The position numbers and the translations under genes were made by a program. From positions 95,942 to 159,941 of the forward strand of contig JAZKBO010000002.1 of NCBI GenBank assembly GCA_040388575.1: a stretch of 64,000 bases of DNA, written 5' to 3'. Numbering within the stretch: position 1 is the stretch's first letter; each line of letters starts with the position of its first letter. This document shows, one piece after another, positions 18,716-57,454 of this stretch. The notes below the pieces were generated by a model, which was not told the origin of the DNA, did no database searches, and was given only the letters and a program-made list of their open reading frames with translations. This DNA is from Patescibacteria group bacterium (GTDB lineage: Bacteria > Patescibacteriota > Minisyncoccia > Phycocordibacterales > UBA9973).

Positions 18716-18773
18716 TTTTGTTAAATAAAAACAATTGACGGGAGCCCCTTCTCGGAGCCCCCGTCGTGTGTAT

Positions 18774-19100
18774 CTATATTGCTGGAACAGCCGGTTTGCT
18801 GCGCCGACTGCTTCCTCTGGGGTATGGTACGTCGAGTGGTGCTTTTCGTACCCGATTTAACACCAATACGGCGATGACCCCAGCGGAAAGAACGACTATA
18901 GTTGAGCCGATGATCCCTACAACAGGGCTCAGACCACCAAAGGCTCCGCCGAGGAAAGCCCCGATCAGCGTTAGCGCGTAGCTGAATGGACAGAAAGCGG
19001 CCCCACCATTTTTACACGGTATGCCCGCCTCTTGCACCTCATGCACCCAGATCGAAATAGTGAATCCAATGAAAGCGCCCCATAAGGCACTTACCAACAT
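18774..19100 (-). CDS. GC-rich small membrane protein (likely TTG start preceded by GGAGGTG SD) inserted inside purine operon
   Basis: Gly/Ala-rich hydrophobic protein (..GAFLGGAFGGLSPVVGIIGSTIVVLSAGVIAVLVL..). The local GC is far above the surrounding sequence. The SD 'GGAGGTGCCC' sits 5 nt before TTG. The ORF-track N-terminus (MYYHIWRCPLGA) probably reads through the RBS. Confidence 0.4.
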   Translation of the reverse strand: MLVSALWGAFIGFTISIWVHEVQEAGIPCKNGGAAFCPFSYALTLIGAFLGGAFGGLSPVVGIIGSTIVVLSAGVIAVLVLNRVRKAPLDVPYPRGSSRRSKPAVPAI

Positions 19101-19156
19101 TGCGCCCAAGGGGCACCTCCAAATATGATAATACAATATTAACCTATCTAGTCAAT

Positions 19157-26206: not shown

Positions 26207-27595
26207 CTACTTCCAATAACGCTCTACCACATGATGTTCCTCTGGGCCGGTGCCAACATATATAATTTTCGCTCCCAGATTTTTTTCAAGGAATTTAACA
26301 TAATCTAAGGCTTCCTTGGGTAATTTAGTGTCGTAGTCTGAAAGTCTGCCCTGCCACAATGGAAATATTTTCAAAACGGGTTTAATAGTGACTTTCGAGA
26401 TGTCGAATGGGATTTTAGAAGTTTTTTTACCGTCAATCATATACTCTGTGCAAACTTTTATATTTCTAAATCCTGAAAGGACATCGAGCTTGGTTAAAAC
26501 TAATTCAGTCGCGTTATTCATTTTGATGGCATATTTAAGCAGCGGAATATCCAGCCAGCCTGTACGGCGCAGGCGGCCAGTGGTGGCCCCAATTTCATTA
26601 CCTAATTTTCGGAGTGCTATGCCTTGCTCGAATTCATCTGTACTATTTGGGTCAGGGGTTGGGTAAGCTTTATTTTCATCAAATAATTTTTTATCGCGGC
26701 ACCAAACTGCTGAAACTTGACCGCCGAGCTCGGTAGGAAACGGGCCCTCGCCCACTTTAGTTGTGTATGCCTTCAAAATTCCAATAGCGCCACCTATATA
26801 TGAGGGTGGAATACCGAGCCCAGTGCCTACCCCACTTGAAATGGTGTGGGAAGACGTTACGAATGGGTAATGTCCGAAGCGAATATCAAGAAGTGCTCCC
26901 TGCGCCCCCTCCGCTATAACTTTTCTGCCAGTAGATAGTGCGGCTTCAACAATTTCTGCAGACTCAATTAATTTAATCTTACTTAAAAATTTAATACCTT
27001 TGAAGAAGTGAGCTTCACTCTCCTTTAGTTCACTATCTTTGAGTCTGTAGTCGAAAACCTTCTCTAGGGTTTGCTTATGCTCATTGCGTAGTGCTTGGTA
27101 GTGCTCTTTAAAATCCTTTTGGTAAATGTCCCCAACACGCAATGCCCTACGCAACGTAAGGTCAGTATATGAAGGCGAAATGCCTCTACCAGTTGAGCCT
27201 ATTTTTCTTTTACCTTTAGTCTTTTCAGAAATTGTATCTAAAACAAGGTGGGTAGGAATAGTTAAAATTGCATGGGGTGAAACTGACATTCTACCCAGGA
27301 AGGAAATATTTTTTGGAATTACAGAAGCTTCATTTAATAATGCACCTGGATTGATAACCATACCAGCTCCCAAATGAATTTGTGCTTTACCAAAAACCCC
27401 TGACGGAATGAGATGAAATACATAACATTTCCCTTTGTGCCAAATAGTATGCCCAGCATTGTTGCCACCTTGAAAACGTACAATTAAATCTTGTGCTTTT
27501 AAGCCCGATGCAATACGCGCCACGCCCTTGCCTTTGCCTTCATCGCCCCATTGGAGGCCGATGATCGGTATAATTTTGGATTTAATATTCTTCAT
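26207..27595 (-). CDS. purA: Adenylosuccinate synthetase
   Basis: QWGDEGKGKG P-loop signature and GAQGALLDIRFG. Confidence 0.9.
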   Translation of the reverse strand: MKNIKSKIIPIIGLQWGDEGKGKGVARIASGLKAQDLIVRFQGGNNAGHTIWHKGKCYVFHLIPSGVFGKAQIHLGAGMVINPGALLNEASVIPKNISFLGRMSVSPHAILTIPTHLVLDTISEKTKGKRKIGSTGRGISPSYTDLTLRRALRVGDIYQKDFKEHYQALRNEHKQTLEKVFDYRLKDSELKESEAHFFKGIKFLSKIKLIESAEIVEAALSTGRKVIAEGAQGALLDIRFGHYPFVTSSHTISSGVGTGLGIPPSYIGGAIGILKAYTTKVGEGPFPTELGGQVSAVWCRDKKLFDENKAYPTPDPNSTDEFEQGIALRKLGNEIGATTGRLRRTGWLDIPLLKYAIKMNNATELVLTKLDVLSGFRNIKVCTEYMIDGKKTSKIPFDISKVTIKPVLKIFPLWQGRLSDYDTKLPKEALDYVKFLEKNLGAKIIYVGTGPEEHHVVERYWK

Positions 27596-29094
27596 TATTC
27601 TTTTGAGTAGTTTGAGGTTGGACTAACCATAAAAATATCATGCACATGGCTCTCTCGCAGCCCAGCACCGGTAATAGTATAGACCGATGCATCACGCAAA
27701 TTATTTATTTCTTTTGCTCCCAAATACCCCATACCGGATCGTAGCCCGCCAATATATTGATGGAGAACCTCTCCAAGTGGACCTTTGTAAGGCACATGAG
27801 CGGAAACTCCTTCTGGAACAAGCTTGATCGGATCATATTGATCATCCTGGAAATATCTGTCCTTGGAACCTTTTTGCATTGCGTCCACTGAACCCATCCC
27901 ACGATACTTTTTAAATTTTTGTTCATTGCTGATAATTATCTCCCCAGGAGATTCATCGGTGCCTGCAAAAATACTTCCAGACATAACTACATCTGCACCG
28001 AAGACGAGGGCTTTGACTACATCACCACTGTATTTAATGCCGCCATCTGCAATAACAGGGATATCGTGAGCAGCACACGCTTTATAGACATCGTAAATTG
28101 CGGAAAGTTGAGGCACGCCCACCCCAGAGACGATTCGAGTAGTACATATTGAACCCGGACCAATGCCCACCTTAATTGCGTCAGCTCCGGCTTCGATTAA
28201 GGCTAGCGCAGCTGCACCTGTGGCAACATTACCGGCAATAATATCTAGCTTAGGATACTTAGTTCTAATATTCTTAACTGTATCAATAACTCCCTTGGAA
28301 TGGCCATGGGCTGTATCAATGCAAATTAAATCTACCTTACTCTCGACGAGTGCATCCACTCGTGCCAGAGCATCGGCACCTGTGCCAACTGCAGCTCCTA
28401 CGCGAAGCTTACCCTCAGCATCTTTGGTTGCGTTCGGATATTCGCGGCTTTTGACTGTGTCACCATGGGTTATCAAGCCCACCAACCTGTTGTCTTTATC
28501 AACTAGAGGCAACTTTTCTACACCGTGCTGCTTGAATAAATCATTCGCCTCCTCAATGGACGTATCAGCATGGCCAGTTATAAGCTTGGTAGTCATTATG
28601 GTTTTTATCGGCACAGTATCACTCTTTTCAAAACTTTCAAAGCGCAAATCCCTTTTAGTAACTAAACCAACCAGGGTACCCGTCTGGCTAATAATCGGGA
28701 TACCACTAATATTATTTTTTTGCTGGATTCGGAGTGCATCACCAATCGTTGCATTCTCAAGCAGTGTAATCGGATCTGTGATACGTCCAGACTCAAAGCG
28801 TTTAACTGTAAGTACATGGCTGGCTTGCTCCGTTACCAGTAAATTCTTATGAATAATACCAATGCCGCCATATTGAGCCATGCCGATAGCCATATCGCTC
28901 TCTGTCACGGTATCCATTGCAGCAGACATTAACGGAATACTTAGTGAAATATTTTTTGTTAGACGAGTTTTGATTATTACATCCTTCGGCAGCACTTCAG
29001 AATAGTTTGGTACCAACAAAATATCATCAAAGGTAAGCCCTTGGCCTAGCATATTAGGCATTGATACTTTTTTATCACCTTTTTCGTTTGTCAT
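27595..29094 (-). CDS. guaB: IMP dehydrogenase (with CBS pair)
   Basis: [10 protein letters not shown] start, CBS domains, catalytic loop [11 protein letters not shown]. Confidence 0.9.
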
Positions 29095-29123
29095 ATATTA
29101 CCTTAACTATACACGTAATGATT

Positions 29124-29420
29124 TTATGCGTCAATTTTTACTCCCTCCTCAAGCAATAGTGATCGCTTAGTCTTAATGCCGCCCTTACCAGAGTATCCAC
29201 CAAGGGTTCCGTCATTCCGGATGACTCGGTGGCATGGAATTTGTGGTGCGCAGGGATTTGCGCCTACCGCATTAGCTACGGCTCGGATGGCCTTGGGCTT
29301 GCCAATACGCTTTGCTAGATCGGTATAAGTAATGACTTTTCCTTGAGAAATTTTTTGGAGTTCTTTCCAAACCTTTTTCTGAAATTCCGTTCCACTTAAT
29401 TTTGACACGTTAATTTTCAT
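29124..29420 (-). CDS. ogt: Methylated-DNA--protein-cysteine methyltransferase, stand-alone C-terminal (active-site) domain
   Basis: PCHRV active-site motif (Cys retained, so not an ATL protein) and VITYTDLA... helix-turn-helix. Only 98 aa, with no N-terminal domain. Confidence 0.8.
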   Translation of the reverse strand: MKINVSKLSGTEFQKKVWKELQKISQGKVITYTDLAKRIGKPKAIRAVANAVGANPCAPQIPCHRVIRNDGTLGGYSGKGGIKTKRSLLLEEGVKIDA

Positions 29421-29461
29421 ATTGCTTATTCTAACATGTGGAAAAATAAGGCCAAAATGAC

Positions 29462-29492
29462 TTGACTTTTGTCTAATAATGTGAAATACTAT
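29462..29492 (+). promoter_or_regulatory. Putative promoter TTGACT-N17-(TG)AAATACT upstream of GC-rich element
   Basis: Near-consensus -35 with an extended -10-like box on the plus strand. All flanking genes are on the minus strand. Confidence 0.35.
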
Positions 29493-29530
29493 CAGTAGAT
29501 CACTCCGAGGGCGGAGTGAGGGAAGGAAAA

Positions 29531-29719
29531 ATGAAACTGACCTACATCGCAGAAAAGCGATATTGTCGGCGAGGGGCCTGCAGAAAGCTCCTCTCGCACT
29601 ACAACCCGACTGACGAGTGCCTCTCGCACGGTAAGTCGGCAGGATTCAGAAGCGTGAGGGCCGAAGACTTCACGAACGACACGGTTCGGAAGTCGGAGCC
29701 CAAACCGCAACACCGCTAG
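29531..29719 (+). CDS. Small basic Cys/His-containing protein (62 aa) in a ~58% GC island; alternatively part of a structured RNA
   Basis: Strong SD (GGAAGGA, 4-5 nt spacing) before ATG. A 5' hairpin CACTCCG-AGGG-CGGAGTG precedes the SD. Sequence MKLTYIAEKRYCRRGACRKLLSHYNPTDECLSH... has a C-x4-C-x11-C-x2-H spacing. A ~130-nt 3' region then leads to a T-run. Confidence 0.35.
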   Translation: MKLTYIAEKRYCRRGACRKLLSHYNPTDECLSHGKSAGFRSVRAEDFTNDTVRKSEPKPQHR

Positions 29720-29804
29720 ACTCGAGCGCCTCTTCTAGTGCCGTGATCCCAGCCACGGCAACCCGTTCTTAAGTTCCCTCTGGTTAAGCCAGACGGAAAG
29801 CAAC

Positions 29805-29856
29805 ATCAAAATCTCTCGTCGTCCCCACAAGGCCGTCGAGATTTTTTGTTTTTAGG
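29805..29856 (+). terminator. Putative terminator (imperfect GC stem followed by TTTTTTGTTTTT)
   Basis: A T-rich run sits at 29843-29856 after a GC-rich segment on the plus strand. The stem is imperfect. Confidence 0.35.
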
Positions 29857-30327
29857 CTATATTATTTCAACTTTCTTTTCTATTATTTCCTTTCCTTCCG
29901 TACTAAATGTAAAGCTAGCATTCACTTTCTTACCTTCTAGGACTTGTGGCAACCAATGAATATCGTCAATCCACATATTTTCATAAGGGACTTTGTTGAT
30001 TGAATACCACTTAGGGGCCATCTCTTCGGTTTCAATTGGTTCCCCTTGCCACTTTTCTATAAAAAATACATGGACTTCTTGATTCCAATCCGAATTATCT
30101 TGAAAACTGAAATTAATAGTTGCGACTTGATGGAGATCCTTCGGCTCAATCTGGACTCTAATTTCCTCACGAGTCTCCCTAACTAGAGCTTCCTTGATAG
30201 TTTCGCCAATGTCCAATTTTCCTCCGACACCATTCCATTTACCCGCACCAAACCCACGCTTCTTCATTGCTAGTAATATTTGCTTCTCCTTAGGTTTATT
30301 CAGAAAAAGTAAAGTGGTCTTTTTCAT
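29857..30327 (-). CDS. NUDIX hydrolase (MutT-like)
   Basis: Nudix box GGKLDIGETIKEALVRETREEIRV (Gx5Ex7REUxEExGU). Confidence 0.8.
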   Translation of the reverse strand: MKKTTLLFLNKPKEKQILLAMKKRGFGAGKWNGVGGKLDIGETIKEALVRETREEIRVQIEPKDLHQVATINFSFQDNSDWNQEVHVFFIEKWQGEPIETEEMAPKWYSINKVPYENMWIDDIHWLPQVLEGKKVNASFTFSTEGKEIIEKKVEII

Positions 30328-30331
30328 ATTG

Positions 30332-30402
30332 CTGGGAGGCTTGGAATCGAACCAAGATTAACGGCTTCAAAGGCCGCTGTCCTACCGTTAGACGATCTCC
30401 CA
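30332..30402 (-). tRNA. tRNA-Gln (anticodon UUG), CCA not encoded
   Basis: Hand-folded cloverleaf. U1-A72 and G73 are typical of bacterial tRNA-Gln. D-stem GTCT/GGAC, anticodon loop CTTTGAA, T-arm CTTGG-TTCGATT-CCAAG. There is one 7-66 mismatch. Confidence 0.8.
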
Positions 30403-37729: not shown

Positions 37730-37780
37730 AAAGAGTGACGACCAGAGGCCTGTTCGGCACCCTGGTCGAGAACTGACCCT

Positions 37781-38083
37781 CTATTTCATTCGCTCCAGAA
37801 CGTTGGGCGGAATCTTCTCGCATGGCACGTTGGCGATCGACGGGATGAGATTGCCGCCGCGCCAATCTTCGAAGTACGCGTAGCAGAGCCCCACCCGAGC
37901 GTCTTCAATGTACTCGATGCTCCGCACGATGTGGTTAATACGTCCTTGTGTGGTGTCCGCTTCTTCCTGCGCATAGCGCGCCTGGGCTTCCGGACTCAAG
38001 CTTTCCTTCACAGCAGCATACACGATCGCTCCAAAAGCAGCGACAGCCAGCAATACCAATACGATTCCTCGCCACTTCTTCAT
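37781..38083 (-). CDS. GC-rich small secreted/membrane-anchored protein (about 100 aa) with perfect SD
   Basis: The likely start is MKKWRGIVLVLLAVAAFGAIVYA (signal/anchor). It is preceded by GGAGGTGCCCA-ATG on the minus strand. Local GC is about 55%, against about 40% in the flanks. Confidence 0.4.
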   Translation of the reverse strand: MKKWRGIVLVLLAVAAFGAIVYAAVKESLSPEAQARYAQEEADTTQGRINHIVRSIEYIEDARVGLCYAYFEDWRGGNLIPSIANVPCEKIPPNVLERMK

Positions 38084-38139
38084 TGGGCACCTCCGTGCCA
38101 TACAATTGTTCCTAAATAATTTACAATTTATTTTTGCTG

Positions 38140-38168
38140 TTGTCAATCCGTGAAATATGTAGTATAAT
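38140..38168 (+). promoter_or_regulatory. Sigma70-like promoter TTGTCA-N17-TATAAT, ATG 6 nt downstream (leaderless) for rel
   Basis: TTGTCA 38140-38145 and TATAAT 38163-38168. The core ATGTAGTATAATCT is identical to 8781-8794. Confidence 0.5.
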
Positions 38169-38174
38169 CTATAT

Positions 38175-57070: not shown

Positions 57071-57106
57071 GCGCATTATTGAGTTATAAAATACACAGGA
57101 GGCGCA

Positions 57107-57364
57107 ATGTACCGTTTCATGTTCTTCAGGGGGCGAAAGCGTCTCCGGTGGGATGAAATACCCACAAAAGCGAACGGGGAAGTCTTTAATGCAGCCAATA
57201 TGCAAAAGGCTTTCGAATACTGCTTCGCCAAGTATCAAGAAGGCGGCACAGTGTACGGCGGAGGCGACATGACGCGCGACGTCCCCGCCTGGGTTCCAGC
57301 TCCAGTTCGACACACACGTACCATCTCGCACCCCGACGAAGCGTCGGCACATGCGGACAAATAA
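57107..57364 (+). CDS. GC-rich small protein (85 aa) with AGGAGG SD, own terminator
   Basis: ACAGGAGGCGCA-ATG. Local GC is about 58%. No motif. It is followed by a stem/T-run terminator. Confidence 0.4.
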   Translation: MYRFMFFRGRKRLRWDEIPTKANGEVFNAANMQKAFEYCFAKYQEGGTVYGGGDMTRDVPAWVPAPVRHTRTISHPDEASAHADK

Positions 57365-57378
57365 CAAGCGACCGGTTA

Positions 57379-57428
57379 GCACGCGAAAGGTCAATCCCTT
57401 TCCGTGCTCCCGGCGATTTTTTTTGCCC
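57379..57428 (+). terminator. Rho-independent terminator (GCACG(C)GAAAGG...CCTTTCCGTGC stem, then T8)
   Basis: An approximately 11-bp stem with one bulge, followed by GATTTTTTTT. Confidence 0.55.
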
Positions 57429-57454
57429 GAAATTTCAGTGTATAATGTATAAGT

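Follow-up and report, generated by a model that had tools for sequence, protein, structure and literature searches.

A GC-rich intergenic element of a Patescibacteria genome probably encodes a small Cys3-His knuckle protein on a folded mRNA

Organization of the locus

The element described here lies at 29462-29853, on the + strand, of a stretch of 64,000 nucleotides (nt) from a genome of the Patescibacteria (Candidate Phyla Radiation, CPR). The whole stretch is referred to as the window, and all coordinates are window positions. The element is a GC-rich transcription unit of its own, antisense to its neighbours, and most likely a gene for a small protein that public annotation has missed. As anticipated in an original prediction on this DNA, it is placed between an ogt-like gene (29124-29420, - strand, 98 amino acids (aa), PF01035 domain) and a convergent NUDIX gene (- strand, stop codon at 29857-29859), and a tRNA-Gln gene (30331-30402) adjoins its NUDIX side. 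The element is thus flanked by a divergent promoter on the ogt-like side, where a second promoter-like site (29455-29428, - strand) points to the ogt-like gene, and by the 3' end of the NUDIX gene on the other. All the long open reading frames (ORFs) found between 9445 and 34581 are on the - strand, and the opposite orientation that had been assigned to the element is therefore correct. The same locus is carried by two independent public assemblies (L001 and L002), and is therefore not an assembly artefact.

The element stands far above the genome in base composition, as had also been noticed. The GC content of the 29495-29846 interval is 55.7%, against a window mean of 41.4%, and reaches 57-58% in 200-nt windows and 62% in the best 150 nt (the standard deviation over the window is 6.1% for 150-nt windows). 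The 29488-29850 tract is the longest run with 54% GC or more in the 64 kb.

Transcription signals are found at both ends. The promoter is of the sigma-70 type (TTGACT at 29462-29467, a 17-nt spacer, AATACT at 29485-29490, 9/12 matches), and the promoter scan identified also the TG of an extended -10 box at 29482-29483, as described earlier; transcription would start near 29497. A 5' stem-loop (UCACUCCG-AGGG-CGGAGUGA, 29500-29519) was recovered by RNAfold. The stem had been reported to span 7 base pairs (bp), and is of 8 bp. Only 11 nt separate its end from the AUG, and the purine-rich ribosome-binding region GAGGGAAGGAAAA (29518-29530) corresponds to the Shine-Dalgarno tract that had been seen abutting the hairpin. 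The ORF that follows (29531-29719, + strand; ORF62 hereafter) encodes a basic protein of 62 aa, MKLTYIAEKRYCRRGACRKLLSHYNPTDECLSHGKSAGFRSVRAEDFTNDTVRKSEPKPQHR, in which a CCCH zinc-knuckle core at residues 10-33 precedes an unconserved C-terminal tail. The codons of the conserved core (29560-29629) specify the series R10-x-C12-x4-C17-x3-L21-S22-x-Y24-N25-P26-x3-C30-x2-H33. The Cys/His pattern is hence the one proposed earlier, except for the third cysteine, which is preceded by 12 and not by 11 residues (C12-x4-C17-x12-C30-x2-H33).

The 3' untranslated region (3'UTR; 29720-29853, 133 nt, 52% GC) had been correctly outlined as a stretch of about 130 nt closed by a terminal signal. It is structured, and conserved in the only close relative described below. 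It includes a hairpin of 6 bp (H1, GCCGUG-AUCCCAGC-CACGGC, 29740-29759), a second hairpin (H2, UUCC-C-UCUGG-UUAAG-CCAGA-C-GGAA, 29774-29798), and an intrinsic terminator (29808-29853) made by an A-tract, an imperfect GC-rich hairpin (29812-29841) and the run TTTTTTGTTTTT (29842-29853). The terminator was missed by a simple terminator scan because its stem has bulges. It may also serve the convergent NUDIX gene.

Conservation of the reading frame

A word-indexed protein search started from ORF62 alone returned no candidate. An exhaustive phmmer search of 1.84 billion representative proteins identified one true homologue, denominated P0003 (E = 2.4e-5), and the word-indexed search repeated with ORF62 plus P0003 found only P0003. 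The two proteins are 61% identical at residues 2-34 and share the series RYCRxxxCxKLLSHYNPxDECLxH. Among the 30 N-terminal codons that align, 20 specify the same residue in both proteins, in 13 of these 20 cases by different codons. This is the bias towards synonymous change for which a check had been proposed. Nucleotide identity at the three codon positions is 21, 23 and 11 of 30, respectively. By this codon comparison, the protein has been kept in spite of saturation at synonymous sites, and purifying selection on the ORF62 frame is evident. No such relationship is seen between the C-terminal halves (3/19 identical residues; the DNA alignment has z = 1.1).

P0003 is encoded by a contig (L083) with 38.5% GC overall and 51.6% GC in the corresponding element. 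Its promoter (ACTTGACTTTT, 17 nt, TATGAT) is found at the same place as the window promoter, and a 5' hairpin (ACGCUCCA-UUGG-UGGGGCGU) is located 12 nt before the AUG, which is preceded by the ribosome-binding region AGAAAGGGAGAA. The ORF has 61 codons and ends with UAG, and the 3'UTR measures 143 nt before a T-run terminator. As far as the aligned DNAs tell, the element and its only close relative are collinear from the promoter to the terminator, including the hairpin at the 5' end, the ribosome-binding site, the length of the ORF and two hairpins of the 3'UTR. Both ORFs are peculiar in composition. The GC content of ORF62 is.51/.48/.73 at the three codon positions, and the value for third positions (GC3, 0.73) contrasts with about 0.37 in neighbouring genes; GC3 is 0.52 in the L083 ORF and 0.22-0.49 in the genes around it.

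A family of Cys3-His knuckle proteins

A search for the Cys/His core at the DNA level, by means of a degenerate pattern, identified 27 metagenome stretches, 16 of which host members of the same family as ORF62, encoded by small ORFs in contigs with 66-70% GC. The remaining stretches are chance matches; one of them, L106, was discarded upon inspection, as it lacks a start codon and the architecture of a gene. Nothing was confirmed by a protein-pattern scan of metagenome contigs with KLLSHYNP. A profile search extended the family to about 60 clusters of proteins of 52-116 aa featuring the same core. These come mostly from genomes with 67-70% GC, and in one case from a viral contig. No cluster features a Pfam domain, and those with a source name are all annotated as hypothetical proteins.

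The family core fits the consensus R-x-C-x4-C-x3-L-S-x-Y-N-(P)-x3-C-x2-H. R10, C12, C17, L21, Y24, N25, C30 and H33 are invariant in an alignment of 33 sequences and all present in ORF62, an invariance somewhat inflated by the retrieval of the high-GC members with a pattern and a profile derived from ORF62. S22 and the next position (T in the family, H23 in ORF62) are nearly invariant. As H23 is not conserved, the likely ligands are C12, C17, C30 and H33. When a profile was built from the high-GC members only, the ORF62 frame scored E = 4.6e-9, versus 0.44 for the next best among 955 stop-to-stop segments of the window. ORF62 resembles the family also in size and isolation: it has 62 aa, its own promoter and its own terminator, and the members are mostly monocistronic. 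The periodicity of the codons and the eight invariant residues thus bear out the small Cys/His protein gene that had been proposed.

The family appears to be undescribed so far. No significant match was found in Pfam, NCBIfam or PADLOC. The hits to zinc-ribbon profiles that had been suggested as a check were not obtained, as ORF62 has no Pfam or NCBIfam match, and other members gave sub-threshold matches only (CxC6 and EsV_1_7_cys, E about 0.015). In a search of the PDB by sequence nothing significant emerged, 7sek (E = 0.32) being the only match. AlphaFold2 modelled ORF62 with confidence only at residues 11-30, as a beta hairpin (confidence score, pLDDT, 87-91), the tail being of low confidence, and Foldseek found no match of the model in the PDB at E<=0.001. 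A literature search for the motif strings returned no paper containing them.

In high-GC genomes the family gene is a stand-alone unit, and in several lineages it adjoins a gene encoding a cold-shock-domain (CSD) protein of 68 aa. The two genes are divergent at seven loci (L111, L112, L114-L116, L118, L119), with their starts about 280-300 nt apart; the CSD gene is found in tandem in L098, and 1.6 kb off in L117. Such a neighbour is missing from L083 and L120-L124, and from the whole 64 kb of the window. In other lineages the family gene is located beside lgt, a glycosyltransferase gene or an anti-sigma module. At most, the CSD association points to a role connected with stress or RNA; it is not a defining trait of the family.

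The viral member, encoded by a contig with 60% GC (IMG/VR UViG_3300045120_000222, L125 2998-3279), is a protein of 93 aa, MRFCKEPGCRTILSTYNSEDRCFVH..., with the knuckle at the very N-terminus. Its gene sits among small early-type ORFs. Searches with ORF62 and one high-GC member gave no significant match in phages by blastn, or in phages and plasmids by tblastn.

Structure of the transcript

The RNA had been predicted to be unusually structured, and the only close relative indeed keeps the UTR hairpins through compensatory changes. The + strand of the element folds with z = -4.35 relative to dinucleotide shuffles, none of 100 being as good, versus z = -2.0 for the - strand, and the L083 transcript folds with z = -3.86. 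The ORFs alone also fold better than their shuffles (z = -3.7 in the window, -2.6 in L083). The window 3'UTR has z = -3.1 without and -4.4 with the terminator, and both 3'UTRs deprived of the terminators score about -3.

The three hairpins are found at similar positions in the extracted transcripts (4, 244 and 278 in the window; 12, 240 and 282 in L083). Their 24 stem positions comprise 15 identical pairs, 2 one-sided changes, 6 double changes and no broken pair, and one internal mismatch occurs at the matching place in both RNAs, so that 23 of 24 positions are paired in both; as the low-GC members are just two, the window and L083, these figures represent a single pairwise comparison. The 8 pairs of the 5' hairpin show 3 double changes and a one-sided one, with none broken. 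The 6-bp H1 stem features one compensatory change and the common loop CCCAGC. The 10 positions of H2 include two compensatory changes, a one-sided one and the shared mismatch. A global alignment of the two 3'UTRs has z = 5.9 against shuffles. Since hairpins, folds and 3'UTR are conserved in both low-GC members, selection may act on the structure of the transcript in addition to the protein, to the extent that two sequences allow.

Two further readings of the 3'UTR were discarded. A pairing of the ribosome-binding site with the pyrimidine tract following the stop codon, checked by eye, is not conserved between the two elements. An integron attC site was considered for a core-like GTTAAGC found in the window, which is not present in L083.

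High-GC members also begin with a conserved leader of about 110 nt. Its first hairpin, CUCGGG-YGACG-CCCGAG, is followed by GGUUCGCGUCGAGCGACGG. The leader was seen in L087, L089-L091, L095, L112, L114, L115, L122 and L123 and has no Rfam match. It displays one compensatory pair, its sequences being too alike for much covariation.

These features leave room for a dual-function transcript, in which the 3'UTR with H1 and H2, or the whole RNA, would also be regulatory, either as a 3'UTR-derived small RNA or as the site by which the knuckle protein controls its own mRNA. This would add to the protein gene, not replace it. In its favour, conservation is stronger in the 3'UTR (z = 5.9) than in the C-terminal half of the coding region (z = 1.1), pairing is compensated in all three hairpins, the H1 loop is shared, and the high GC3, the fold of the ORF alone and the leader hairpin of the high-GC members go in the same direction. 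However, hairpins at the 5' end and before the terminator are ordinary mRNA stabilisers, the data come from two sequences only, and no target or complementary site was found. Moreover, the high-GC members have no comparable 3'UTR, and a direct scan of the window and of related low-GC loci detected no other copy of the GC-rich H1-like hairpin. A dual function is accordingly held to be possible, and rather doubtful.

A more ambitious version is less probable still, and is offered as a speculation. The low-GC form could be a protein plus RNA module, in which the knuckle protein recognises its own hairpins or the 3'UTR is released as a small RNA, and the family could be made of widespread RNA-binding regulators, linked to CSD genes in high-GC bacteria and moved by viruses between phyla and into the CPR. 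In such a module, base pairing between the 5' loop (AGGG or UUGG) and the CCCAG of the H1 loop is also conceivable.

A variable slot, a deletion allele and other GC-rich islands

Relatives of the window were sought through GuaB among species-representative genomes. The nearest ones are metagenome-assembled genomes (MAGs) of Candidatus Nomurabacteria and Paceibacterota, with 72-76% GuaB identity. No trace of the element was found in them, either by blastn or by position. The interval from tRNA-Gln to guaB (27595-30402 in the window) differs in gene content in every relative examined (L003, L004, L005, L008). It hosts two small ORFs in L005, about 5 kb of other genes in L003, and in L008 a nudix gene, three secreted or sortase-like genes and ogt. 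No att-like repeat of the 3' end of tRNA-Gln was found in the window.

An allele with a deletion has been found in the same population. Assembly L002 (GCA_040384165.1, JAWVHB010091574.1) lacks 31 nt, corresponding to 29549-29579. The deletion falls between the near-repeats GCAGAAAAGC and GCAGAAAGC, which are GCAGAAA(A)GC repeats, and frameshifts the ORF upstream of the Cys knuckle. All other bases of the element are identical.

Three more GC-rich islands (52-63% GC, 385-445 nt) are located in intergenic positions of the window. The 18716-19156 island (- strand) has an ORF of 108 aa with hydrophobic, membrane-like segments, the 37730-38174 island (- strand) an ORF of 100 aa (MES2315406.1) with a hydrophobic, anchor-like N-terminal segment, and the 57071-57454 island (+ strand) an ORF of 85 aa for a soluble protein. 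In each of them the small ORF, an orphan, is preceded by a sigma-70-like promoter and a strong ribosome-binding site (GGAGG), and followed by a terminator made by a hairpin and a T-run. The first island looks like an insertion, because purD is directly followed by purE in the relative L006. The four islands, including the element under study, share no DNA similarity. For the other three, nothing significant emerged from Pfam, PHROG or phage comparisons, and two of the encoded proteins are singletons in a collection of 15 billion proteins.

Some peculiarities of the surrounding genes are worth recording. The ogt-like protein is limited to the PF01035 domain, which binds DNA and holds the active site; it keeps the PCHR motif and has no N-terminal domain. 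The guaB gene (27595-29094, - strand) encodes a protein that, outside a few CPR MAGs, best matches GuaB of Bacteroidota (Saprospiraceae, Chitinophagales; 54-58%), a pattern that hints at a transfer of guaB between phyla. An exact direct repeat of 13 nt, TTTTCATATTGCT, is found at 29414-29426 and 30321-30333, the two starts being 907 nt apart. The copies overlap the start codons and the upstream bases of the ogt-like and NUDIX genes, and the NUDIX gene and the element lie between them. The repeat could be the footprint of an insertion or duplication, or merely reflect similar initiation regions.

Discussion

The element is probably a real, independently transcribed gene that has escaped annotation, and codes for a 62-residue Cys3-His knuckle protein of an undescribed family on a folded mRNA. 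A number of points weigh against this conclusion. In neither assembly do the public gene calls place a gene between nudix and ogt, and no identical 62-aa protein is found in the collection of 15 billion proteins. The conservation of structure comes from one pair of sequences, and the family alignment carries the retrieval bias mentioned above. The frameshifting allele of L002 implies that either the gene is dispensable or that allele is dead. Finally, the family has no match to a characterised protein or fold, and any function proposed for it is therefore a guess.

The same allele would suit a different view, according to which DNA acquired by horizontal transfer is decaying and the element is what remains of it, deprived of a present function. 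The variable slot beside a tRNA gene, the foreign-looking composition and the three other islands with orphan genes would also be expected of such remnants. However, ORF, invariant residues, promoter, ribosome-binding site and terminator are intact in both the window and L001, and the element is collinear with a homologue from which it diverges to saturation at synonymous sites, which argues for long-term selection on the protein and the UTRs. Decay is therefore regarded as improbable.

A module of the type I toxin-antitoxin kind, in which a small toxic peptide is made from a stable, folded mRNA controlled by an antisense RNA, might be called to mind by the small ORF, the very structured mRNA, the hairpin close to the 5' end and the long 3'UTR. 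Yet the protein is basic and hydrophilic and has no hydrophobic helix, the core of the family is a Cys/His knuckle, the sole antisense promoter-like site is weak (9/12) and placed at the far 3' end, and PADLOC found nothing. This explanation is very unlikely.

A known structured RNA with an accidental ORF could account for a GC-rich unit in an AT-rich genome, about 355 nt long from promoter to terminator and folding as well as this one does. It could be a housekeeping RNA (RNase P, transfer-messenger RNA (tmRNA), signal recognition particle (SRP) RNA or 6S), a reading kept open in the original prediction, or an RNA of the OLE/GOLLD/ROOL type. This explanation is hardly credible and was rejected for all curated families, since cmscan with Rfam 15 at the gathering threshold found only tRNA-Gln, tRNA-Leu and tRNA-Trp in the whole window, no match emerged at E<=10 with permissive filters on either strand of 29380-29920 (541 nt), ARAGORN reported three tRNAs and zero tmRNA in the window, and the ORF is conserved as proteins are, with synonymous changes and family-invariant residues.

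If the element is a gene for a knuckle protein, the N-terminal part (residues 1-33), through C12, C17, C30 and H33, would bind one zinc ion. The best guess is that the protein is a small regulator that binds either a nucleic acid or a protein partner, with contacts specific to each lineage made by its variable C-terminal tail. Decay of the mRNA, exonucleolytic or 5'-end-dependent, may be hindered by the 5' stem-loop and by the 3' hairpins. The high GC content, visible in the third codon positions, might be kept by selection for the fold, or reflect a foreign, mobile origin. The gene was probably acquired horizontally, as suggested by the variable slot near tRNA-Gln and by a family distributed mostly in high-GC bacteria and in at least one virus.

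The protein is reminiscent of other stand-alone small zinc-finger proteins of prokaryotes. In E. coli YacG the spacing of the cysteines is C-x2-C-x15-C-x3-C. Both YacG and Brz of Halobacterium salinarum (PMC2253796) resemble ORF62 in being about 60 residues long, with a Cys/His knuckle near the N-terminus and a short tail, and in being encoded by monocistronic genes placed in intergenic slots. ORF62 differs from both in the combination of C-x4-C-x12-C-x2-H with L-S-x-Y-N-P, and matches no zinc-finger family of Pfam or NCBIfam by sequence or profile. Positions 45-75 of PHROG phrog_10853, a phage family with function unassigned, are matched by the knuckle in 25 of the 33 aligned members. These matches are weak, with E = 0.02-0.08 for the most part (best 1.6e-6), and ORF62 itself has none. 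The MYND-like N-terminal finger of methionine aminopeptidase 1 (MetAP1; PDB 7sek) displays a similar R-V-C-E-x-x-G-C at the first Cys pair. The match is confined to this pair and is not significant, and provides a lead, not a relationship.

At the RNA level, 5' stem-loops in the ompA and aprE leaders stabilise the mRNA, and the element is similar in having a hairpin near the presumed 5' end, directly before the ribosome-binding site. SgrS/SgrT and RNAIII/hld are dual-function RNAs, and the likeness resides in a small ORF carried by a folded RNA with conserved non-coding hairpins. None of these RNAs is related in sequence to the element. Unlike them, the element has a protein part conserved across a broad family, and an RNA part conserved only between two members.

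The object is, in modest terms, of an ordinary kind, a gene for a small zinc-finger-type protein, from a family undescribed and missed by annotation. A CPR genome gains a gene that public annotation of the locus did not call, and a small Cys3-His family lacking a Pfam or NCBIfam model is seen to occur in bacteria with GC-rich genomes, in low-GC genomes of CPR-like type and in one virus at least. As the element illustrates, GC-rich islands of AT-rich genomes are not always structural RNAs, and conservation by codon position can decide whether such an island is coding even with a single homologue. The conserved architecture of the mRNA, the spread of the family across phyla and into viruses, and the neighbouring islands add to the interest of the locus. 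The conserved UTR hairpins, together with the three other islands, suggest that a pool of small, self-contained expression cassettes may be entering this reduced genome.

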